Part shown: positions 1-25,283 of the stretch, one piece after another
How the letters are laid out: each line of letters starts with the position of its first letter
Numbering within the stretch: position 1 is the first letter of the stretch
Virus record (IMG/VR): IMGVR_UViG_2597490260_000006
DNA length: 25,283 nt
Reading direction: 5' to 3' (one strand)
DNA from: a virus
Taxonomy: Duplodnaviria > Heunggongvirae > Uroviricota > Caudoviricetes
Made by a program: the position numbers and the translations under genes
Notes under the pieces: generated by a model
What the model saw: only the letters and a program-made list of their open reading frames with translations
Told to the model about the DNA's origin: nothing
The model's database searches: none

Positions 1-844
1 TGTTTATCACTGGCGACCTGAACCACATCGTCACCAATAGCTATTTTTTTATAGCCCGGAGAAAAACCCGCAATCATATCCAGTGAATCGTTAAACGGTA
101 TCCACACATCAGGCAGCGGCGGCACTATATTCGCATAGGGCTCTGCAGTCACTTCCGCTGCGGCTTCTGCGCGGTCTGCCGCCTTTTCAGCTCGTGTCGC
201 TGCCGACAGAGCCTCATCCTTTTTCTGCCCGGCCTTTGTTGCGTCTGCTGCAGCCTCCCGCGCTTTTGTGGTGGCGACTCCGGCATTTTCAGCGGCTGAC
301 TCTGCATTACGGCGGGAAGCCTCTTCACTGTCTGCGGAGGCTTCTTCTGACGCACGGGCATTTGTCTCTGAACGTTCTGCCGCTGTTGCTGCGTTTTGTG
401 CGGCTGTTTTTGAANNNNNNNNNNGTTCCTGGACGATGCCGCTGCTGTTTCTGATTTCTTTGCTGCCGCTGCGCTCTGAGAGGCGGCTTCAGCGTTGCGT
501 GCCACATCCTCCACCATTTCCTGAAAACGGCGCAATGCCTCCGGCATGACATCATCTTCCGTCATGGCACCGAGAAAATCATTCAGCGTCCCCGGACTGG
601 AACCTTCATAGACGGTAATGGTCCCAACATGTGATGGCTGAGAACCCTCAATCCACAGGATGACGCTGTACTGACCATACTCAACGTCCATACTGTAACG
701 CCCGGCTTCATCAGGATTTTCAGAGGCCACCGTGTTCACCAGTACCGTGGTGCTGTTACGCTTTGCCTTCAGTTGAATAGTGCAGTTCTGTATTGGTTTT
801 CCCGCACCATCTTTCAGCACACCTGAGATTTTTACTGCTGCCAT
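1..844 (-). CDS. stf: Side tail fibre protein Stf, 5' portion (partial, continues beyond window start; interrupted by N-run)
   Basis: Translation from the ATG at 844 (MAAVKISGVLKDGAGKPIQNCTIQLKAKRNSTT...) matches the recalled lambda Stf N-terminus. The track ORF begins at a GTG at 850, but the ATG at 844 has a GGAG 5 nt upstream. After the N-run the track ORF continues in a low-complexity frame; my manual translation shows the Ala/Glu/Ser-rich Stf-like frame starts at 413 and stays open to position 1. Confidence 0.8.
415..424. other. Run of 10 ambiguous bases (assembly gap or masked bases) inside stf
   Basis: Literal n characters at 415-424; the stf reading frame changes phase across it, so true gap length is unknown. 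Confidence 0.95.
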
Positions 845-856
845 ATCCACTCCACA

Positions 857-883
857 AAAAAGCCCGCCTGAACCGGCGGGCTG
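857..883 (-). terminator. Intrinsic terminator-like hairpin between lom and stf
   Basis: Minus-strand reading gives stem GCCCGCC / GGCGGGC with loop GGTTCA followed by TTTTTTG. Confidence 0.5.
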
Positions 884-908
884 TCATAACACTGTGTTGC
901 CTGGTTAA

Positions 909-1508
909 TCAGAATTTATAACCGACACCAACGATGAAACCGTCAGTGCGCCAGTCGCCACTGCCGGAACCTTCATAAGCAATATCAATGGCCACGGATT
1001 CGGTCGGGTTAAACTGCACGCCAGCCCCCCACGCCAGAGACGTGTCGCTGTAGCGACCGTCATCACTTCCGGTCAGCACATCGTCCGTTTTCCCCTTGTT
1101 ATCAGTTACGCGGAGATAATCCCCGGAGAAAGTCGACACACGGCTGTAAGCCACGCCCGCCATCGCATACGTGCTGAACCATTCATTCACGCGTACAGAC
1201 GGCCCCGCCATCATGCTGAACCAGCGGTTACGCACGGAATCTTCATGCCAGCGGGTATCGCTGTAGTGCGTTTTTTGCTCATCCTCAGCATTGGCATAAC
1301 TGAAGGACGTAATCAGCCCCAGCGCGTCCGTAAACTCATAACGGTATTTCACGTTAATCCCGTTCAGATTATCGCTGCCGGGAGCGTTCGTACGGGCATG
1401 AAGATACCCCGCGCTCAGTGTGGACTGATGTTCAGACGCCCATGCAGGCGCACCGGATACGGACAGACAGATGGCTGCGGACAAAATGGCTGCACATAAT
1501 TTACGCAT
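909..1508 (-). CDS. lom: Lom outer membrane protein (Ail/Lom family beta-barrel)
   Basis: 199 aa with N-terminal signal peptide (MRKLCAAILSAAICLSVSGAPAWA) and C-terminus ...DWRTDGFIVGVGYKF with terminal aromatic residue typical of OMPs; sits between J and stf as lom does in lambda. Confidence 0.85.
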   Translation of the reverse strand: MRKLCAAILSAAICLSVSGAPAWASEHQSTLSAGYLHARTNAPGSDNLNGINVKYRYEFTDALGLITSFSYANAEDEQKTHYSDTRWHEDSVRNRWFSMMAGPSVRVNEWFSTYAMAGVAYSRVSTFSGDYLRVTDNKGKTDDVLTGSDDGRYSDTSLAWGAGVQFNPTESVAIDIAYEGSGSGDWRTDGFIVGVGYKF

Positions 1509-1532
1509 AATTACCTCTCGCTTTTCTGCAAT

Positions 1533-1556
1533 AAAAAAGGCGCCATTTCTGGCACC
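1533..1556 (-). terminator. Intrinsic terminator-like hairpin downstream of J
   Basis: Minus strand reads GGUGCC-AGAAAU-GGCGCC (6-bp stem with one G-U wobble) followed by six T residues. Confidence 0.45.
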
Positions 1557-1575
1557 CGTATTGGGGTTATAAAAT

Positions 1576-4500
1576 TCAGCTAATCGTGATGCCTGCAGTG
1601 GCTTTCTTCATCACAACAACCAGCAAATCGCTGATACTTGCTGTGGGATACCAGCCATTTACCCACCATGCTGATACAGAAAACTCCAGCGTCATGTCGC
1701 CGCGACCAGCAGGCATATCAATAACACCACTGTAAACCAGCGTATTATCCATCGCGGTACGGTTATAAATTTCAGCACCGTTTTTCTTCACTATCAGGCG
1801 GCATGACGAATAAGTATCGCTGTTCTCCCGCTCATGTCTGGCACCGCTGAAAGCCACCGCCGGAATAACAATCTGCCGGTTAAACGGCTGATCGTCATAA
1901 ACCCTGACGGTAATGGTTCCTGATGGCCAACGCTTCGGTGCACGGGAGTCACGAGGGAAAGCCTTACCCACTGTTTTAACGAGATCGCCTTCAATCTGGT
2001 TTGCAGACAGTTTCCCTCTGATGACACAGTTCTCGTTAATGGTGACATTATTGAGCGTGCCGGTATTCGCCGTGATGGCTCCACTGATATCCGCATTGCG
2101 GGCTGTCAGCCTGCCATCCGGCGTCAGGGAAAACGTCGGAGGATTGCCGGATGACGTGATGCTCACCGCAAACAGTCGCTTCAGGAACACGTCGTTCATG
2201 AACAGCTGATTCCCCTGCGCCACAAACAGCGGCGTGGTGTTGCCGTTCTCCGGGGTAATCATCGCAATGCGATCGGCCTGCAGCAGAATGTTACTCAGGG
2301 TCTGACCATCAACATCCTCAATCCCCGCACCAATCCCGGCCACATAGGGAATACCGTTTTTTGTTTTCTGCACCTTCAGCATATACATGGCATTCAGCTC
2401 ATTGCGCGTGTCTGACTGAACCCGCTGGATTTGCTGTATGGTCACGGCCTGGTCACCCAGCTTTTTATCCGTGGTCGAGGTAATTTCACTCCCTTTTTTA
2501 TCCACGTACTGGCGGACCTGTGCTATCTGTCGGGCGTTTTCTGACTGCCCCTGGCTGACAGTCTGTGAGATTTCACTGCTCACCCGGTCCACTTTCTGGC
2601 TCACCTGCGCGATGGCCAGTGTCTGATCCTCATTCTTTTTCGCAACCAGCTGCGTGAGGCTGTTTTCCGCCTTCCCGATTTTCCGGGTCACTTCTGCGAT
2701 ATCCGTGTCCATCCGCTGACGGATATCTTCTTCCAGTTGCGTGACCTCCATACGCAGCGCTGAAGCATCAATGCGCTCTTTCAGTGCCTGACCCAGAAGC
2801 GTCTCATCTATCAGCCCCCGGAAAATTTCCAGATACCCTTCACCATCATTGCTGGGCTGCCCGCTGGCTTCCACAAAAGCAGATTTTCCCACCAGGTTGA
2901 CGCTTCGCACGTAAAACCAGAAATCCGTCCCCGGCTTAATCCGGCTCCCCTGGACAGTCCACTGACTGCCGGTCCCCAGATAACGGGCAGATTTTTCCAC
3001 CTGTGCTGTGTTCGTGATGCGTTTTTCTGAGAACCAGAATTCAAACTGTACCGTCGGGTCATACACCGCAAGACGCGGGACCGCCGTTATCTGAAAATAC
3101 CCCGGCGTCAGCTCAATGGTGGCGGGTTTTGCAGGTGCGTTAATCCGGAACGATACCGACGCCGGATCGCCCTGCTGTCCCCGGGCATTTACCGCCCGGA
3201 CCGTCAGCGTGTAACGCCCCAGCGCCAGCTGCCTGAAGCGGTAAGTGGTTTCCGCCGTCCGGGCCGTGCTGACCAGCCGCTCACTGCCGTCATCCGCTGT
3301 TACGGTCAGACGGAGCAGGAAGCTCACGCCCTTCACCACCTTCGGCGTGTCCCAGCGCGCCAGCACCTGATATTCCCCGCTGTCTGCGGTGACTTCGGCG
3401 GTCAGGTGCTGCACCGCTGGCGGCGTGACACCATTCACCGTGCCGCTCTGGTCGCCGTCAAAGTGCGCTCCGTTATCCACGATGGCCTCTTTTTCCGGCA
3501 CATGCTGCACGGCGGTGATGGCATACGTGCCGTCGTCGTTCTCACGGATACTCACGCAGCGGAACAGTCGCTGGCGCAGCGTCGGCAGCTTCAGCCCCCA
3601 TACGCTGTATTCAGCAACACCGTCAGGAACACGGCTCACTTTTACCTTCACGCCGTCGGTGACGGACTGAACCTCCACGCTGACCGGATTGCCACTTCCG
3701 TCAACCAGGCTTATCAGCGTGGTACCGGAGGATGGCAGCGTGATTTCACGGTCGAGCGTCAGCGTCCGGGTCTGGCTGTTCACCGCCAGCACTCGCCCGC
3801 CGGTGCTGATACCGGCATAGTCATCATCGCAGATTTCAATGACATCGCCCGGTACATGGCGAAGCCCTTCAGCACCCACGCTGAAGTCCACGGTCTGCGT
3901 TTCCAGCAGCTCCGTTTTAATCAGCCACAGCCCGGCGCGGTGTGCCTGCCCCCGACTGGTACAGCCAAAGGCATCCATCTTCGTGACGTTACGACCGTAA
4001 CGGAGAATGGCCTGCGTATCTTCAACAAGCTCTGTCGCCGTCTCCCAGCCGTTATCCGGGTCAATCCAGTTCACCTCAACGGCATTATGGCGGTCCTTCA
4101 GGGCGCTGAAGCTGTAGCGGAACGGCGCGCCATCATCCGGCATCACCACATTACTGCGGTTATAGGTCCACACCTTATCCGACGGTCGGTCCTGCACGAA
4201 CGTCAGCGTCTGCCCGTTCCATACCGGCATACAGCGCATCGCCGAACAGAAATCACTGAGCACATCCCACGCCTTACGCTGTGTGGTCAGGTACGCATTA
4301 CAGGTGATGCGCGGCTCCGTGCCACCAAAACCATCCGGCACCGACTGGTCGCAATACTGTCCGATGACATACAGCGCCCATTTGTCCACATCCGCCGCAC
4401 CAAGACGTTTCCCCATGCCGTAGCGCGGATGGGTCAGCATATCCCACAGACACCATGCCATGTTGTTGCTGTATGCCGGTTTAAACGTTCCGTCCCAGAT

Positions 4501-20370: not shown

Positions 20371-20817
20371 GCAGGCCCCCCCACCGGGAGGACCCGTCAG
20401 CCTGACAGCCATAACGAACGTCTGATACAGCCCTTACATGAATGGCATCGGGATAATCCAGAAAGGAATAGCATCGACCCACAAGAATCTGTGTGAGTGT
20501 CCTGTTTCTTCCACCCCCGCACAGGACTGGCGAGCATGAGGGACAACCCCGCGAACCATAACCGCGCTGATGACAGGACTGGCCCGGCTTGTATTGCTTC
20601 CAGCCTTCGCTTTTGTGGCTTTTGCAATAGCCTGACGGATCTGTGGTGGTATTGCGGTAGCCGCGAACACGGCAGGTTTTTGGGGTTCGTGGGGGCATAT
20701 GTACTCCAATGAAGAAGCCACCAACATAGCCTCCTCCATTCATCGTGAAACTATTTTCATCTACCCAGTAATGAATTCTTTGAAGAGTTGTGATCAATAC
20801 AACTCGCTAATGGAGAG

Positions 20818-20841
20818 GCTTGTCTCACACGTGAGACAAGC
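20818..20841. repeat. 24-bp near-perfect palindrome (11-bp inverted repeat, 2-bp centre)
   Basis: GCTTGTCTCAC-AC-GTGAGACAAGC read directly from the sequence; about 80 bp upstream of the small plus-strand ORF. Confidence 0.9.
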
Positions 20842-20920
20842 TTCCTGTTTGATTTACTGGACAGTATAGGAGGACAGAATGCCTTCCTCACTCGAATAAC
20901 ATCAATTAAGGAGGTTCAAC

Positions 20921-21043
20921 ATGTTTCATTCCACAAGTCATCAGGCTGTAATTATGGCAGCATCAGTTTGTGCCACAGACCTTTTCCGCTTCACTTTGAG
21001 CCTGATTCATTTCTACCTGACCGGCTCGCCTCTATCTTTCTAA
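20921..21043 (+). CDS. Small ORF (40 aa) with strong ribosome-binding site, antisense to the late transcript
   Basis: AAGGAGG 7 nt upstream of the ATG; encodes MFHSTSHQAVIMAASVCATDLFRFTLSLIHFYLTGSPLSF. Below the ORF track size cutoff. No family recognised; coding status is unproven. Confidence 0.4.
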   Translation: MFHSTSHQAVIMAASVCATDLFRFTLSLIHFYLTGSPLSF

Positions 21044-21162
21044 TCCCCGATTAATCCAAATTTCACTGCCATAATGCCGACATTCTCTGCCATTGTTGGC
21101 TCCGTTTATCCGTTAAAAGGGATATCAGTTAAGTTATCCCGTGCAGGGTATAAGCCATTATC

Positions 21163-21192
21163 AAAGCCACTCTGTAGGGAGTGGCTTTTGTA
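21163..21192 (+). terminator. Plus-strand intrinsic terminator-like hairpin
   Basis: AAAGCCACU-CUGUAGGG-AGUGGCUUU followed by UG; about 120 nt downstream of the small plus-strand ORF. Confidence 0.4.
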
Positions 21193-21397
21193 ATGGCAAT
21201 AAAAAGCCCCGCGAATGCGAGGCTAAATCCTGGTATTTGTAATGACTGGCTCTTATCTCAACGCAGCCCCTTACCGCGCGCAAGATGCTCAATATCAAGC
21301 ATCAGCAATGAGATGTTTAATCTGGATTCACTCCAGAAGTGATCACCATCCTGTCTACAGAGCCAGATGTGAAGGATGATGAGTAAAATTATCGCTA

Positions 21398-21880
21398 TCA
21401 TCGAAGGCATTGCGTCCTGATGTATTCCTGAAGCGTTCTCAGTGCTGTTTGGTCGCGGATAATTCCGTCCCGGATACCGAGAACGTTTCGTCCAGCAACT
21501 GGAGAGAGTTCGACGGTGGCATCATTGCCCATGCCGGAGGCGCTGGAGGTTTCGGCTGAGGATGGCACAGGGCATTTTCCTTTGACGAACACCCGACCAC
21601 CATTATCAAGCTTGCGCCGAAGAGCATCATTTTTAGCTTTCGCATCAGCTAACTCCTTCGTGTATTTAGCATCGAGTGCATCAGCAGCACGCTGGCGCTG
21701 CTGCATGTCAGTAATGGTGGCGGTCGCCTGCTTCAGCTCACTGACTTTTTTATCACGCTGTTCTTTATAGGCGATGGCGTTATCACGGTAATGATTGACC
21801 GCCCACGACAGGCAGACGATGATGCAGATAACCAGAGCATAAATAATCGCGGCGACTCTGCTCACTGATCTATCCCCCAA
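21398..21880 (-). CDS. Rz: Rz i-spanin (inner membrane spanin subunit)
   Basis: 160 aa; N-terminal transmembrane segment ([20 protein letters not shown]) followed by a charged coiled-coil-like region; directly downstream of the endolysin gene and containing an embedded lipoprotein ORF. Confidence 0.85.
21439..21645 (-). CDS. Rz1: Rz1 o-spanin (outer membrane lipoprotein), embedded within Rz in another frame
   Basis: 68 aa; signal peptide with lipobox (LIMVVGCSS) followed by proline-rich mature sequence ([16 protein letters not shown]); entirely inside the Rz coordinates. Confidence 0.8.
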
Positions 21881-22395
21881 CAGGCTAATGCGCTTTCCTG
21901 GTCACGACGAATAACTTGCCCATAGCAGTTATTTGAACGTATGCGGCAATCGCGCCCACCATCTTTTATCCACCAACGAATCGCCTCACATGCACCCTTA
22001 CGATCACCGGCATTCAGCCGCTTATAAAACGTCGACGGGAAACACTTACCAGGGCCAATGTTATAGGGACAGAATGACGCGATACCGGCTTTCTGTGGCT
22101 CGGTCAGTGGAACTTTTATATTGCGCTCCACCCATGCCAGCGCCTTATCCCGCTCAATGGCGTTAACCTGGGCGCATTTTTCCTTCGACAGTTTCATTCC
22201 CGGAATAACAGGTTTACCGTCCACCATCGTTGCTCCCCGACAGATGGTCCATATGCCGGAGCCATCGCGGTATGCAGTGATGTGATTCCCCTCTTTTTCA
22301 TCCAGAAACTGATCGAGAATGTCAGGCGCGGGCGCACCGACGGCAATCAGTGCCAGAACAGCAGCCGACAGGCTGTATCTGATTTTTACGTTCAT
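21862..22395 (-). CDS. R: SAR endolysin (lysozyme-like, signal-arrest-release type)
   Basis: 177 aa; weakly hydrophobic Ala/Gly-rich N-terminal segment ([16 protein letters not shown]), then a lysozyme-like region ([24 protein letters not shown]); resembles the lysozymes of phage 21 and K-12 cryptic prophages as I recall them. Confidence 0.85.
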
Positions 22396-22458
22396 GGATA
22401 TTTATCAGGATTTATCGGTTTCTGCCCACGGACAGGTTTATCTGTTCCGGTCAGTGAC

Positions 22459-22809
22459 TTAAGGTTGTGATTCCGGAGGAGTCTTCAGAGAACCAGTAAT
22501 TCTTCCCGGTAGCTTTCCTTTGTAGGTTATCCATACATTCTGCGCCTCTAAAATTACGGGGCGCTTTTCCGGCGACTGCTCATCCCCTTCACATAACCCG
22601 GCAGCAACATCCAGGAAGACCTGTCTGATGCTCATTCTGGCTGCTGCCTCATAAAACTCCAGCGCGGCACCTTCAACACGGTCCAGCGAGATGTCCAGGT
22701 CAAAAATTTCACCGTCAAAGCGTTTTTTGTCCCGTAACGCTAAAGTTACCGTAACTTTATTCTCAAAATTGCGGATCCCTTTCACAATCAGTTCATAGTT
22801 TTGAGTCAT
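22459..22809 (-). CDS. Hypothetical protein located between holin and endolysin (possibly related to YdfR-like prophage proteins)
   Basis: 116 aa, tightly packed 4 nt after the holin stop. The family name is from memory of cryptic-prophage gene order and is not verified. Confidence 0.6.
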   Translation of the reverse strand: MTQNYELIVKGIRNFENKVTVTLALRDKKRFDGEIFDLDISLDRVEGAALEFYEAAARMSIRQVFLDVAAGLCEGDEQSPEKRPVILEAQNVWITYKGKLPGRITGSLKTPPESQP

Positions 22810-22813
22810 TGAA

Positions 22814-23029
22814 TTACTCTCCCCGTGCAGCCTTACGCTTGTCTTCTCTGATTTTGAAGTACAGATTTGTCAGATAAGTCAGGAAGCCCAGAACCAGACT
22901 CCCCAGTACACCAATCGCAGCCCACTGTGACGGACTGACCTGATCAAGCCACTGTAAAAACCAGTAGCCAGCACTGCCTGCGGAGGTGCCATAGGCGACA
23001 CCCGTTGTTAACTTATCCATGGATTTCAT
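22814..23029 (-). CDS. S: Class II holin (phage 21 S-type pinholin) with dual-start motif
   Basis: Start trimmed to [71 protein letters not shown] (71 aa), which closely matches the recalled phage 21 S protein. Two ATGs are separated by Lys-Ser (MKSM). GAGGTGGGG RBS upstream. Confidence 0.85.
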
Positions 23030-23068
23030 AACCCCACCTCGCAGATGCGGGTGCTGTGTAATGGAAAT

Positions 23069-23090
23069 AAAAAGGCCACCTGACGTGGCC
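23069..23090 (-). terminator. Intrinsic terminator immediately downstream of the methyltransferase gene and upstream of the holin
   Basis: Minus strand reads GGCCAC-GUCAG-GUGGCC followed by TTTTTATTT, 7 nt after the methyltransferase stop. Confidence 0.55.
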
Positions 23091-23096
23091 ACCAGA

Positions 23097-24149
23097 TTAT
23101 TTCCCCACCAGCTCGTTTATCTCTTTCACTGTCTGGTTAAACCGCTCTGACTCAAGCTCAACACCTAAGGCCCGACGCCCCAGCGCCATTGCTGCTTTTA
23201 TTGTGGAACCGGATCCCATAAAAAAATCAGCAACCAGATCACCAGGTCGACTACTGGCATTGATTATTTGCCTGAGCATATCCGCCGGTTTCTCACACGG
23301 ATGTTTACCCGGGTAGAACTGAACGGGTTTATGCATCCAGACATCGGTATAAGGCACGGAGACTGATACGGAGAAATAGCGCCGGAGAGATTTAAACTCA
23401 TCCAGCAATTCAGAATATTTGCGATTCAGTGAATCATAAGATGCCACCAGCTGGTGGTGTGGTTGTTCCAGTTGTTGTTCCTGAAACTTCTCTGCCGCTA
23501 TACGGGAAAACAGTGCCTGTAACTTCCGATAGTCAGCCTCATTCGGCAACTGCCACTGACTGGCACCAAACCAGTGGGAAACCATATTTTTCTTACCTGT
23601 GGCTTCGGCAATTTGTTTTGCCGTTATACCCAGTTCGGCACGAGCATCCCTGAAATACGATATCAGCGGTGCCATTATGTGCTGTTTGAGTTCCCTTTCT
23701 TTTGCCGCATAGCCGTCACTTTTGCCGCGATATGGCCCCTGGTAATGTTCAGCAAACAGAACGCGCTCTGTGGCAGGAAAATATGCGCGCAGACTTTCTT
23801 TATTACACCCATTCCAACGTCCGGACGGCTTCGCCCAGATGATATGGTTAAGCACGTTGAAACGTTCACGCATCATGATCTCAATATCAGATGCCAGGCG
23901 ATGCCCACAGAACAGGTAAAGGCTTCCGGCAGGTTTTAACACCCGCCAGAACTGGGCCAGACAGTGGTCCAGCCACTTAAGGTAATCTTCGTCCCCTTTC
24001 CACTGATTGTCCCAACCGTTGGGTTTCACCTTGAAGTACGGCGGATCGGTAACAATCAGGTCAATGGAATCATCAGGCAGGGACTGAATAAAATGCAGGC
24101 AATCAGCGTTGATTAAATCAACACTGTTTATTTTTACAGTATTTTTCAT
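23097..24149 (-). CDS. DNA methyltransferase, N6-adenine or N4-cytosine type, beta-class motif order, no adjacent restriction gene
   Basis: 350 aa; DPPY motif near the N-terminus (LIVTDPPYF) and FxGxG AdoMet-binding motif near the C-terminus ([13 protein letters not shown]); a helix-turn-helix-like segment in the middle. No obvious Shine-Dalgarno before the ATG. Confidence 0.85.
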
Positions 24150-24299
24150 GGATCAGTAAGCGTAACTCTGGTAGGCTCACTCTGCTTTTGCGCTAAAGCA
24201 GTGGGCCGTGGTTCGCTTGTGACCAGTAAGCATGAGCGAATGGCTGGCAGGTGCTACCAACACCCACCAGCCGCCCATTTTCACAGCAGGAAACCGCCA

Positions 24300-24503
24300 T
24301 TACTGGCAGCGTCTGAATTTATTCCCGTATCCGCCGTTATCCTTCGCCAGACCCGCCAGAACTAACTGAGTCAGTATTAACTGGCACCGGGCTTCGCTTA
24401 CTCCGGTAGTTCTCGTCATCATGCGTGGCGTTACCCACTTGTCAGCAGGTAAGAAATGAAGGACTGCGGCGGCGGTTTCTGTCATATCTTGCTGTTTTAG
24501 CAT
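24300..24503 (-). CDS. Small putative DNA-binding protein (winged-helix-like), function unknown
   Basis: Start placed at the second ATG (MLKQQDMTETAAAVLHFLPADKWVTPRMMTRTTGVSEARCQLILTQLVLAGLAKDNGGYGNKFRRCQ, 67 aa), with AGAAGGGA 7 nt upstream. A helix-turn-helix-like segment is my reading, not a database match. Confidence 0.5.
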   Translation of the reverse strand: MLKQQDMTETAAAVLHFLPADKWVTPRMMTRTTGVSEARCQLILTQLVLAGLAKDNGGYGNKFRRCQ

Positions 24504-24625
24504 GTCTTTTTCCCTTCTGGTTAACATGACATACCAATAACTCTTGTCTAAAAAGCCAGCAAGATAAAAGGTCAGTATTCACGACCACCAGCGTGTTTAC
24601 TGTACTGCACCAAGTTTACAGGTAC

Positions 24626-24645
24626 AAAAAAACCGCTCAGCGGCG
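24626..24645 (-). terminator. Weak terminator-like hairpin with seven-T tract
   Basis: Minus strand reads GCCGC-UGA-GCGGU followed by TTTTTTTG; short stem and 3-nt loop, so it is weak. Confidence 0.3.
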
Positions 24646-24711
24646 GGTTTAAGTTGTGTGGCGAAGTAACCACTCTTAACAGCATATTTGATTTTTTACG
24701 ATTGTAAACGG

Positions 24712-24739
24712 TTGATTATTCATCTCCAATAAAAATAAT
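24712..24739 (+). promoter_or_regulatory. Sigma-70-like promoter for the lipoprotein gene
   Basis: TTGATT (24712-24717), 16-nt spacer, AATAAT (24734-24739); the ATG is about 35 nt downstream. Confidence 0.5.
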
Positions 24740-24773
24740 TGTGTAGGTATGCCCTTAACAATGGATAAGAAAC

Positions 24774-25220
24774 ATGAATAAAATGACTGTACTATTACTT
24801 AGCGCAACTATCATTTCAGGTTGTACTTCTTCCGTACCATTGATAAAAAAAACTCAATCAGGAAAACCTGAGGGGGTTTATCAAAATACGACAAAAGATA
24901 AAGTCAAAGATGCCCTTGTGAATTACTGCAATAGTAGAGGGTTGATAATTTACAACGCTGATAACAGCAGTGTTATATGTGGTAAAGAACTGGAAGGCGG
25001 GTCTGCTGTTTTTGGACAAATGTTAATCGGCAATGCCTATTCAACAACCCCGGTATCAAAAGTCAGATTTACTATCGCTCAAGTTAATAACGATACAAAA
25101 GTGTGGGCCGATATGTGGATGGAAACTCAAATGGCAATGGGGCAAGTACAACAAATGGCTATAACAGACAACGCAAGCAAAAACACTATCCAACAACGTC
25201 TTGATGAATTAAAACCTTAA
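24774..25220 (+). CDS. Putative lipoprotein of unknown function (AT-rich accessory gene)
   Basis: 148 aa; signal peptide with lipobox (LLLSATIISGCTSS); gene is visibly AT-rich relative to the flanking phage genes; opposite orientation to the late operon. Confidence 0.75.
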   Translation: MNKMTVLLLSATIISGCTSSVPLIKKTQSGKPEGVYQNTTKDKVKDALVNYCNSRGLIIYNADNSSVICGKELEGGSAVFGQMLIGNAYSTTPVSKVRFTIAQVNNDTKVWADMWMETQMAMGQVQQMAITDNASKNTIQQRLDELKP

Positions 25221-25240
25221 GTAAATTAATTAAATAAAAT

Positions 25241-25264
25241 GGGGAGAATAAATCGACTCCCCAC
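25241..25264. terminator. Hairpin downstream of the lipoprotein gene
   Basis: UGGGGAG-AAUAAAUCGA-CUCCCCA; the T-rich tract lies on the minus-strand side, so it may terminate a minus-strand transcript entering from beyond the window. Confidence 0.3.
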
Positions 25265-25283
25265 ACATTAAACTGATTCAATT

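Follow-up and report, generated by a model that had tools for sequence, protein, structure and literature searches.

In the laboratory, M.EcoGII is a widely used reagent for chromatin and RNA footprinting. It is a non-specific adenine methylase carried by a prophage, reported to be toxic and not to be expressed in the lysogen; the means by which the phage keeps it silent are not stated (PMC5778455; PMC12707154). The same has been seen for M.EcoGI: neither enzyme gives a methylation signal in the lysogen and both are toxic on expression (PMC5778455). In the M.EcoGII literature that we searched, no genomic position, leader RNA or upstream small ORF is described. Related gene pairs occur in the phages SfV (orf47–orf48) and phiP27 (L23–L24), where the annotations of the two genes say no more than hypothetical protein or methyltransferase. 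Another toxic, broadly acting adenine-modifying enzyme that is silent in the lysogen is encoded by the com-mom operon of phage Mu (PMC12707154).

The locus described here lies in a 25,283-nt stretch of viral DNA, called the window below, and all of the features under study (methyltransferase, 67-aa ORF, the spacer between them and the terminator) are carried by its minus strand (Table 1). A 2.5-kb stretch is 98–100% identical to sequenced phages and to 161 Escherichia coli genomes, so these features are not chance. We consider it probable that the region is a cargo cassette that carries an M.EcoGII-family methylase at the start of the late operon of a lambdoid prophage and follows late-operon logic.

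Table 1. Positions of the features discussed in the text (paired segments are given as 5' arm with 3' arm).
Feature	Position	Strand	Details and basis
P21-type class II holin	22814..23029	-	first gene of the lysis cassette; PF04971 match, E = 3e-35
Strong intrinsic terminator t2	23066..23093	-	between methylase and holin; terminator scan; annotated in SfV, Ayreon
M.EcoGII-family beta-class N6-adenine DNA methyltransferase, 350 aa	23097..24149	-	PF01555, phrog_67, PADLOC MTase_II
Start region UGAUCC	24155-24150	-	
Conserved structured leader RNA	24150..24285	-	covariation; ~135 nt
Leader P1	24277-24273 with 24206-24202	-	
Leader P2	24272-24261 with 24253-24242	-	
Leader P3	24240-24232 with 24220-24212	-	
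Leader P4	24200-24195 with 24188-24183	-	
Alternative leader fold	24278-24273 with 24237-24232; 24225-24214 with 24162-24150; 24207-24201 with 24180-24174	-	
67-aa stand-alone winged-helix protein	24300..24503	-	SfV orf47 / phiP27 L23 family, phrog_331
Promoter-proximal terminator t1	24624..24644	-	5-bp hairpin + U7; terminator scan; annotated in SfV, Ayreon
Late promoter pR'	24681..24708	-	-35 TTTACA 24708-24703; -10 TATGCT 24686-24681; promoter scan
148-aa lipoprotein-like gene (context only)	24774..25220	+	phrog_3152 match, E = 1e-104

The preliminary description of this DNA had called the 350-aa product a beta-class methyltransferase with DPPY before FxGxG, and the profile search upholds it. 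PF01555 matches with 145.9 bits (cut-off 26.7) over profile positions 1–220 of 221, PADLOC MTase_II matches at E = 3e-152 and phrog_67 also matches, while TDPPYF (residues 34–39) precedes FFMGSGST (309–316), the order of motif IV before motif I that marks beta-class N6/N4 amino-methyltransferases. Aligned over its full length with M.EcoGII, the protein has 281 of 349 residues identical (81%), which places it in the M.EcoGII family; the only two gap positions are close to the C-terminus and do not fall in the central domain. The query for this comparison came from Table S1 of PMC11551740 and contains minor machine-reading errors. Among solved structures no M.EcoGII structure was found, and the nearest are distant beta-class enzymes only. 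Judging by the 81% identity and by its place behind terminators and a structured leader, the methylase of the window is presumably sequence-non-specific, silent in the lysogen and toxic. The near-identical phage and chromosome stretches, which span about 5 kb of the window together with its flanks, carry no annotated restriction enzyme, and the neighbouring ORFs gave no match to the PADLOC defence models. Of the earlier suggestion of a phage anti-restriction methylase, the orphan phage-borne adenine enzyme stands, and the anti-restriction role is plausible. It had also been noticed that the gene lacks an obvious Shine–Dalgarno sequence: indeed, no GGAGG-type motif precedes its ATG (tactgatccATG), and the UGAUCY immediately 5' of this codon is kept in nearly all homologues.

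In pR', 16 nucleotides separate TTTACA from TATGCT, and a hairpin with a U7 tract follows. Positions 24733–24624 align with the annotated pR' and terminator of the Stx2 phage 06-3462, and the alignment takes in TAAGAGTGGTTAC, the conserved initial transcribed stretch. No Q-like gene had been seen in the window, which is correct: a PF06530 Q gene ends 22 bp past the right edge, both in phage PhiR40_1 and in E. coli chromosomes with 100% identity to the window over 22800–25283. The Q protein from those chromosomes is 79% identical to that of an Stx phage. The one chromosome that was inspected differs farther downstream in having a truncated YdfR gene, and the actual source genome probably also carries Q, to judge from genomes whose 100% identity covers the right-hand 2.5 kb only. 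Inserted between Q and pR' is a gene on the opposite strand, found between Q and the small ORF in PhiR40_1 and the E. coli chromosomes as well; its 148-aa product has no match in Pfam, and the N-terminus, MNKMTVLLLSATIISGC, reads as a lipoprotein signal by eye from the sequence. Read from the sequence, the locus thus has the layout of a Q-dependent late operon, with Q upstream of the late promoter, and promoter and terminator upstream of the lysis genes. This is an ordinary, lambda-like arrangement, and the idea that late control here differs from that of lambda Q is not supported, given a Q gene so close to the edge and its cognate pR' and t1 within the window.

The two terminators differ in strength. 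The first, t1, is weak (−6.3 kcal/mol, z = −0.9); in Sakai-type Stx phages a stronger hairpin homologous to it is read through by the 258-nt precursor of StxS (PMC7547250). No StxS-like sequence was detected in the window past the first 80 nt. The hairpin with a U-tract that had been spotted just after the methylase stop is a second, intra-operon terminator, t2: its hairpin, GGCCAC-GUCAG-GUGGCC followed by U5AU3, begins 6 nt past the stop codon and folds with −12.2 kcal/mol (z = −3.0), a stability reached by none of 200 shuffles. Because t1 is weak, t2 may be the main barrier ahead of the lysis genes, in line with the earlier proposal of a late-operon terminator placed before the holin, which is followed by a DUF1327/YdfR ORF, lysozyme (PF00959) and Rz. 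Transcription would start at pR', meet t1 and then span the 67-aa gene, the leader, the methylase and t2 before reaching the holin. Q would be made only after induction, whereupon RNA polymerase would pass both terminators, and this read-through would make the methylase a late gene. The preliminary description had named, as the finding that would speak against it, a Q-type gene beyond the right edge together with a methylase transcribed as an ordinary early gene; the former is largely what was found, but the latter is not what this layout suggests. Made late, the methylase would modify progeny DNA prior to packaging and so shield it from restriction in the next host.

With a pR' that is presumably constitutive and a weak t1, a toxic methylase would need a second lock. 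On these same two points some mRNA may exist in the lysogen, and the methylase could then be viewed as an epigenetic regulator expressed there for the benefit of the host. However, the related M.EcoGII and M.EcoGI give no methylation signal in the lysogen and are toxic (PMC5778455), the methylase gene is located between Q/pR' and the lysis genes in all phages that were examined, and its start site is predicted to be occluded (see below); we find this view highly improbable. The second lock would instead be the leader, to which we come after the small ORF.

The preliminary description had reported a 67-aa winged-helix-like ORF 150 bp upstream of the methylase on the same strand. It is real and conserved, with homologues of 47–58% identity in phages of Hafnia, Morganella, Providencia, Citrobacter and Klebsiella, so the fear that it might be an unconserved frame is not borne out. 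The distance to the methylase ATG is exactly 150 nt, and an alternative start at 24527 is possible, giving a 75-aa form. The profile search of the small protein returned phrog_331 (E = 3e-26); there was no match to any Pfam family, including none of the HTH_3 type, and none in PADLOC. Its AlphaFold2 model (pLDDT 87.6, pTM 0.76) has H1-b-H2-H3-b-hairpin topology, with helices at residues 4–17, 26–33 and 37–49 and strands at 53–55 and 63–65. Foldseek matched this model to generic winged helices (probability 1.0, E about 6e-3), the best being Zalpha with a TM of 0.82, and the predicted fold agrees with the winged-helix order H1-S1-H2-H3-S2-wing-S3. Close variants of the ORF, of which nine were gap-free and usable, show ~17 synonymous versus 5 non-synonymous differences, a pattern that is weakly consistent with purifying selection. 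A controller (C) protein of a restriction-modification system was ruled out, as the predicted fold is a winged helix, there is no Xre-type HTH, C-box or PADLOC match, and no endonuclease is annotated in the related phage and chromosome stretches that were examined.

A winged helix encoded just ahead of the methylase could be a DNA-binding transcription factor that times its expression, with the spacer as operator or promoter. Some relatives are indeed named 'TrmB family transcriptional regulator' by NCBI; the ORF lies 149–150 nt 5' of the methylase in 78 of 80 loci, the other two being contig ends; and one helix of the spacer, P2, is also a 12-bp inverted repeat in DNA. Yet the promoter scan found no promoter-like site between the small ORF and the methylase (24300–24150), so that an internal methylase promoter was rejected, and the small protein has neither an Xre-type HTH nor a C-box or restriction gene beside it. 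In several loci (L180, L195 and L077, the last from Gilliamella) leader and methylase are present without the small ORF. Moreover, the four covarying helices of the spacer accept G-U and U-G pairs on the sense strand only (for instance UG in 20, GU in 10 and GU in 7 sequences), and this one-sided tolerance is typical of an RNA, not of a symmetric DNA operator. A transcription factor acting on the spacer is, in our opinion, distinctly unlikely.

The ~150-nt spacer is in fact conserved more strongly than the small ORF itself. In a plain MAFFT alignment of 50 sequences, two-sided changes were found in 12 pairs of the leader, against 6.7 ± 1.2 in shuffled alignments; none of 500 shuffles reached 12 and slid controls gave at most 5, while a model-fitted alignment has such changes in 24 of 31 pairs, although they represent few independent events, a small set of clades (Enterobacteriaceae, Morganellaceae and Vibrio) contributing much of the covariation. 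All four helices, P1–P4, are backed by compensatory changes, and the junction and loops are highly conserved. In ~65 genomic and 115 viral loci the leader lies directly 5' of the methylase start; the viral loci are 115 of 121 IMG/VR pattern matches, the remaining six comprising contig ends, chance matches and a truncation. A covariance search with Rfam 15 gave no match at E <= 1 over 20500–25283, and over 24120–24320 at E <= 10 it returned only two chance-level matches, both on the opposite strand; the known families AgvB, AsxR, STnc100 and the SAM riboswitch classes were ruled out accordingly. By its conservation and covariation, then, the leader is a conserved, folded RNA outside Rfam, held at a fixed position upstream of one class of gene and associated exclusively with the methylase. 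We found no description in the literature of an RNA element upstream of M.EcoGII-type methylases; a 2023 catalogue of ~10,000 candidate viral RNAs contains four unnamed candidates upstream of "DNA N-6-adenine-methyltransferase" genes (PMC10690425).

Several other readings of the spacer were tried and rejected. A tRNA or tRNA-like element was ruled out, ARAGORN having found no tRNA in the window. The same holds for a small protein: the ORF that begins at a conserved ATG varies from 3 to >47 codons in length, with a stop after 7 codons in 19 of the 50 sequences, and no ORF is conserved. A P5 hairpin (AUCAG/CUGAU) around the start site was dropped, its pairing being lost in several lineages of the alignment. 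An all-against-all search of alignment columns for pseudoknots and loop–loop contacts was swamped by clade-specific co-variation.

Downstream of lambdoid pR' promoters, Hfq-binding sRNAs are known to be encoded (PMC4104026; PMC7547250), and the spacer might be a trans-acting or processed sRNA of this kind, similar to StxS, AgvB or AsxR, that adjoins the methylase incidentally. But the spacing to the start codon of the methylase (or, in Vibrio, of a Com-like ORF) is constant in every genuine copy, the start region has its complement in a conserved segment inside the leader, no terminator marks a 3' end on the spacer, and AgvB and AsxR have no match there in Rfam. An sRNA is thus very unlikely, and the leader is better regarded as a part of the methylase mRNA that may act on translation.

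How it might do so is suggested by a second fold. In the proposed default state, the conserved segment UGGUCA...AAGCG of the leader would pair with the start region CGCUU...UGAUCC-AUG, and the competing three-way-junction fold of P1–P4, which is kept by compensatory changes, would expose the start site. The two folds are nearly iso-energetic in the window (−55.4 and −56.5 kcal/mol). The alternative, occluding fold is the predicted minimum-energy fold in the versions from E. coli, Morganella, Providencia, Vibrio and Gilliamella, in each of which occlusion of the start site is predicted via different sequences. Such occlusion was predicted for 34 of 50 natural sequences, as against 111 of 500 controls in which the start region had been shuffled. 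In the alignment 91.6% of the cells of the alternative fold pair, a figure that is partly inherited from sequence conservation because the minimum-energy structure of the window itself was the source of this fold. Compensatory changes occur in it at 82–146, 83–145, 84–144 and 94–129; two-sided changes affect 6 of its 22 pairs, compared with 4.8 in shuffles, and 111 of 500 shuffles reach 6. The folding z-scores of the leader are modest (−1.4 to −4.0). On these predictions, the case for the leader as a translational gate on the methylase seems to us evenly balanced.

If there is a gate, something should open it. It is tentatively possible that the leader represents an undescribed, bistable class of RNA belonging to M.EcoGII-type methylases, start-occluding by default and switched by a lytic trigger, either the 67-aa protein as an RNA-binding activator or a small-molecule ligand. 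If true, this would explain how a genome-wide adenine methylase can be kept silent despite a late promoter that is expected to fire constitutively. The small winged-helix protein taken by itself as the candidate that flips the leader is rather doubtful, and it is unlikely to be an obligatory trigger because, as mentioned above, some loci keep leader and methylase in its absence. That same observation would suit a metabolite riboswitch for SAM, SAH or another nucleotide-related ligand, with the junction as aptamer and the start-site helix as expression platform, as would the conserved junction and loops with their covarying stems, the two mutually exclusive conserved folds and the consumption of SAM by the methylase encoded downstream. 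On the other hand, the leader resembles no known riboswitch class in Rfam and no ligand can be inferred for it, and a protein trigger (the winged-helix protein, the methylase or the Com-like protein of Vibrio) or purely kinetic, co-transcriptional folding would explain the same data. A riboswitch is unlikely.

The arrangement recurs well beyond the window. The order Q, small ORF, ~150 nt, methylase and lysis or stx genes is found in SfV, phiP27, 1720a-02 and mEp460 and in phages of Hafnia, Morganella, Providencia and Citrobacter; SfV and Ayreon are annotated as Q, terminator, orf47, methylase, terminator and S, an order that is seen in six genera. Phage 1720a-02 encodes a methylase 93% identical to M.EcoGII, with the order Q, small ORF, leader, methylase and stx2. 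In Vibrio relatives, a 42-aa ORF with a Com-like CxxC...CxxC zinc ribbon lies between leader and methylase; its match to PF10122 is weak (E = 0.037, below the Pfam threshold). In Stx phage 06-3462, the last 35 codons of an M.EcoGII-like methylase remain right after tR', so that this phage of the 933W/Sakai type carries a remnant of the methylase cassette at the site of stx insertion.

Compared with M.EcoGII of E. coli O104:H4 C227-11, the enzyme of the window has the same beta-class motif order and size (349–350 aa), and their identity extends to the central target-recognition region. Both are orphan and prophage-borne, and the relative in 1720a-02 shares neighbours and leader with the window, whose enzyme is nonetheless a different allele, 19% divergent. 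For the silence of M.EcoGII, the answer proposed here is a place between two terminators in a Q-dependent late operon, behind a leader able to hide the start site. SfV orf47–orf48 and phiP27 L23–L24 share with the window the succession of Q, terminator, small ORF, ~150 nt, methylase and lysis or stx genes, and in SfV the spacer and methylase start are nearly identical to those of the window. Their small ORFs, however, are a different allele, about 50% identical, and in phiP27, an Stx2e phage, the methylase is followed by tRNA genes and stx2e where the window has a terminator and holin. Stx phages of the 933W/Sakai type have a Q of the same family and homologous promoter, initial transcribed region and first hairpin, and they too place cargo genes between pR' and the lysis genes. 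Unlike them, the window has a ~570-bp segment with the opposite-strand lipoprotein-like gene between Q and pR', and its cargo is small ORF, leader and methylase, whereas theirs is tRNAs and stx. The C proteins are likewise small nucleic-acid-binding proteins encoded just 5' of a modification-related gene. They carry an Xre-type HTH, recognise C-boxes in their own promoter and regulate a restriction gene, whereas the window protein is a predicted winged helix that lacks a restriction partner and whose gene precedes a structured RNA, not a promoter.

Mu com-mom is similar to the window in that the start site is sequestered in RNA structure, by prediction in our case, and must be opened. It differs in having a single hairpin where the window leader has four helices, ~135 nt and two competing folds, and in its Com gene, for which the window has no counterpart, no such ORF lying there between leader and methylase. 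The window enzyme is also unrelated to Mom, and its control would involve Q antitermination, not Dam, OxyR and C. If the leader is a real switch, it would constitute a new RNA family, ranging from Escherichia to Vibrio, in one of the most closely studied groups of phages, and Mu com-mom would no longer be the only case in which a dangerous DNA-modifying enzyme is gated at translation.

The methylase gene belongs to an already known family. Its product scored 145.9 bits against Pfam PF01555 in a profile search (cut-off 26.7), and 281 of 349 residues (81%) are identical to those of M.EcoGII (sequence from Table S1 of PMC11551740), with two gap positions near the C-terminus. M.EcoGII, a non-specific adenine methyltransferase from E. 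coli O104:H4, is described as a beta-class enzyme whose DPPY lies N-terminally and whose FxGxG lies C-terminally, with the recognition domain in the centre; it is prophage-borne, belongs to "a very large family", is not expressed in the lysogen and is harmful when expressed (PMC5778455; PMC12707154). The preliminary description had recognized the DPPY-before-FxGxG order and the lack of an obvious Shine-Dalgarno sequence, and indeed no GGAGG-type element precedes the ATG. Its label of orphan phage methylase is also right, because no restriction partner is annotated in phage PhiR40_1 or the matching E. coli chromosome stretch (about 5 kb of overlap with the window) and the ORFs neighbouring the methylase match no defence model. 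The enzyme may well serve in anti-restriction. One E. coli chromosome that is 100% identical to window 22800-25283 (locus L004) encodes a second, unrelated methyltransferase in the prophage early region (2408-3061 of that locus, outside the window; annotated as phage N-6-adenine-methyltransferase, 217 aa), so that this phage carries an early adenine methylase in addition to the late one.

Features of the methylase region and its leader
Feature	Position	Strand	Remarks
Late promoter pR'	24708-24681	-	TTTACA-16-TATGCT; aligns with annotated pR' of 06-3462
First terminator	24644-24624	-	hairpin and U7; follows pR'
Small ORF, 67 aa	24300-24503	-	phrog_331; ends exactly 150 nt before methylase ATG
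P1	24277-24273 with 24206-24202	-	helix backed by covariation
P2 (12 bp)	24272-24261 with 24253-24242	-	helix backed by covariation
P3	24240-24232 with 24220-24212	-	helix backed by covariation
P4	24200-24195 with 24188-24183	-	helix backed by covariation
Methylase, 350 aa	23097-24149	-	TDPPYF ahead of FFMGSGST; Pfam PF01555

The small winged-helix-like ORF noticed upstream of the methylase proved to be real, with relatives of 47-58% identity in phages of six genera and close variants that differ mainly at synonymous sites; an alternative start at 24527 would give a 75-aa form. The phrog family to which it belongs is of unknown function, and the profile search returned no Pfam match. Its AlphaFold2 model is a confident, canonical winged helix (pLDDT 87.6), for which Foldseek found only generic winged helices, all at E ~6e-3, among them Zalpha (TM 0.82), the N-terminal domains of IclR and TrmBL2, and the RNA-binding domain of SelB. 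The modelled fold is thus a nucleic-acid-binding one; given the winged helix and the lack of a Pfam match, identity with a restriction-modification C protein was rejected. The family is mosaic, with an invariant RCQLILTQ between variable flanks; the first 11 codons (MLKQQDMTETA) are unusually conserved, and the next 25 fall into two strongly divergent alleles. Of the 80 viral loci carrying this ORF, 78 have the methylase start 149-150 nt farther 3', and two are contig ends. Leader and methylase are also found without it, behind a different gene at two loci (L180 and L195) and directly behind Q in a Gilliamella locus (L077).

Across genera, the 150-nt spacer is better conserved than the small ORF itself. 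Searches with an HMM and then with a covariance model (R1) returned about 65 genomic loci, from Enterobacteriaceae, Erwiniaceae, Morganellaceae and Serratia, at which it lies directly 5' of the methylase; matches in Vibrio and Gilliamella were weaker. With 50 de-replicated sequences in a plain MAFFT alignment, 12 pairs with two-sided changes were counted in the helices of a three-way junction (P1-P4), as against 6.7 +/- 1.2 in shuffles (0 of 500 reached 12) and at most 5 in slid controls; in a model-fitted alignment including Vibrio, 24 of 31 pairs showed such changes (control value 11.7 +/- 1.4). Frequent G-U substitutions on the minus strand point to an RNA rather than a DNA operator. A protein-coding spacer was rejected, the ORF from the conserved internal ATG varying from 3 to more than 47 codons, and the window contains no tRNA genes. 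The core pattern occurs at 121 IMG/VR sites, and at 115 of them the methylase is the next gene 3'; contig ends, two chance matches within genes and one truncated copy make up the remaining six. The "gap" is a structured RNA tied to the methylase. One IMG/VR contig (2698536677_000006; L162) has two leader cores about 3 kb apart (383-422 and 3369-3408), which may represent tandem methylase cassettes or an assembly artefact.

The minimum-energy structure predicted for the window leader is not the three-way junction. It comprises a 5' hairpin (AUGGGC with GCUCAU, the latter being the 5' strand of P3), an extended P4 (GGCCCAC with GUGAGCC) and a long-range helix between UGGUCA...AAGCG (24225-24214) and CGCUU...UGAUCCA (24162-24149), which is predicted to bury the conserved UGAUCC together with the A of the AUG. 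In the window, little energy separates the two folds (-55.4 versus -56.5 kcal/mol). In an unfitted alignment, 91.6% of cells pair in the alternative fold versus 23-38% with slid partners, a comparison to be read with the fold's derivation from the window sequence in mind. Compensatory changes fall in the start-site helix, at three successive pairs, and in the extended P4; the count of two-sided changes, again for a fold derived from the window sequence, does not exceed that of shuffles. For Morganella, Providencia, three Vibrio loci and Gilliamella, too, the minimum-energy prediction has this architecture, built from a different sequence in each, and the start codon is predicted to be covered in Vibrio (GUCAUA with UAUGAC) and Gilliamella (GGUCAU with AUGACC). 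At least five start-region nucleotides pair with the capturing segment in 34 of 50 natural leaders and, once the start region is shuffled, in 111 of 500 controls. By our own reading, the conserved UGAUCY before the ATG would be complementary to GGAUCA near the 3' end of 16S rRNA.

The genomic context argues for conventional transcription. Window 22800-25283 (2.5 kb) shares 98.2% identity with phages PhiR40_1 and PhiR55_1, and at least 11 E. coli chromosomes among the matches listed agree with it at 100% identity. In PhiR40_1, and in one 100%-identical chromosome whose flanks were examined, the window's right edge is followed, after 22 bp, by the end of a 121-aa "antiterminator Q" gene; that chromosome is not the exact source of the window, because its downstream YdfR gene is truncated and followed by extra sequence. 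The Q protein, a PF06530 match (E = 2e-51), shares 79% identity with its counterpart in Stx2 phage 06-3462, whose annotated pR', conserved initial transcribed sequence and first terminator align with window 24733-24624, which identifies the promoter listed in the table as pR'. In SfV and Ayreon the annotations run from Q through a terminator, the small ORF, the methylase and a terminator to the holin; a series of Q, small ORF, a spacer of 138-153 nt and methylase is repeated in phiP27, Hafnia phage yong2, Morganella IME1369_02, Providencia PSTRCR_117lys and Citrobacter phiNP, and Q, small ORF and methylase again follow one another in 1720a-02, whose methylase is 93% identical to M.EcoGII. Because of these homologies and the recurring order, the late control unlike that of lambda envisaged in the preliminary description finds no support; the methylase is cargo heading an ordinary late operon whose expression would depend on Q. 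Between Q and pR', which it separates by about 570 bp, lies a 148-aa lipoprotein-like ORF (24774-25220, plus strand; N-terminus MNKMTVLLLSATIISGC; phrog_3152) for which Pfam, NCBIfam and PADLOC gave no match. It appears to be inserted cargo provided with a promoter-like site of its own (24712-24739, plus strand), and a hairpin (25243-25262) separates its end from the convergent end of Q.

The hairpin and U-tract reported between the methylase stop and the holin form a strong, G+C-rich terminator (-12.2 kcal/mol, z = -3.0), and the first terminator is weak (-6.3 kcal/mol, z = -0.9). In Sakai-type Stx phages, pR' is reported to be constitutively active in lysogens (PMC7547250); the homologous first hairpin, stronger there (-12.6 kcal/mol), lies inside the 258-nt StxS precursor, and transcription therefore passes through it. 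Given this read-through and the weakness of the first hairpin, the second terminator may be the main barrier shielding the lysis genes; its suggested role as a block before the holin would thus stand, within lambda-like control. Some methylase mRNA may be present even in lysogens. Another weak terminator-like hairpin (24586-24570, minus strand; GGUCGUGAAUACUGACC then UUUUAU) lies between the first terminator and the small ORF (24504-24620). The methylase is followed by a P21-type holin (PF04971), a DUF1327/YdfR-family ORF (116 aa; 22459-22809, minus strand), lysozyme and Rz. In E. coli MS20653, a 100% identical strain, the YdfR gene is truncated and followed by extra sequence, so the lysis cassette varies among otherwise identical prophages.

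We propose that, without Q, late transcription from pR' would be halted in part by the weak first terminator and firmly by the second, and that the methylase message would additionally be closed to translation by default. During RNA synthesis the 5' hairpin could form first, and the segment thereby freed would capture the start region; a trigger, which might be a protein, a ligand or abundant transcript, would stabilize the three-way junction and open the start site.

The methylase and its gene neighbourhood are already known. As far as Rfam (no match even at E <= 10) and literature searches show, neither the leader RNA nor its pair of conserved folds has been described, and the RNA may be hidden among the unnamed candidates of an extensive catalogue of viral RNAs. 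The stx genes of Stx phages occupy the slot that the methylase holds here. Phage 06-3462 (933W/Sakai-type; L005) keeps the last 35 codons of an M.EcoGII-like methylase (2790-2903; 66% identical; compare window 23097-23204); because this remnant directly follows tR', most of the methylase of an ancestral cassette, along with its leader and small ORF, appears to have given way to the StxS-producing region. The nearest functional analogue of the proposed control is com-mom of phage Mu. In three Vibrio loci (L073, a metagenome-assembled genome, at 2334-2462; L075; L087), the leader precedes not the methylase but a 42-aa CxxC...CxxC zinc-ribbon ORF that is only weakly Com-like (PF10122, E = 0.037). 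The predicted occlusion there falls on the start codon of this ORF, and the methylase itself begins with TTG about 15 nt farther on.
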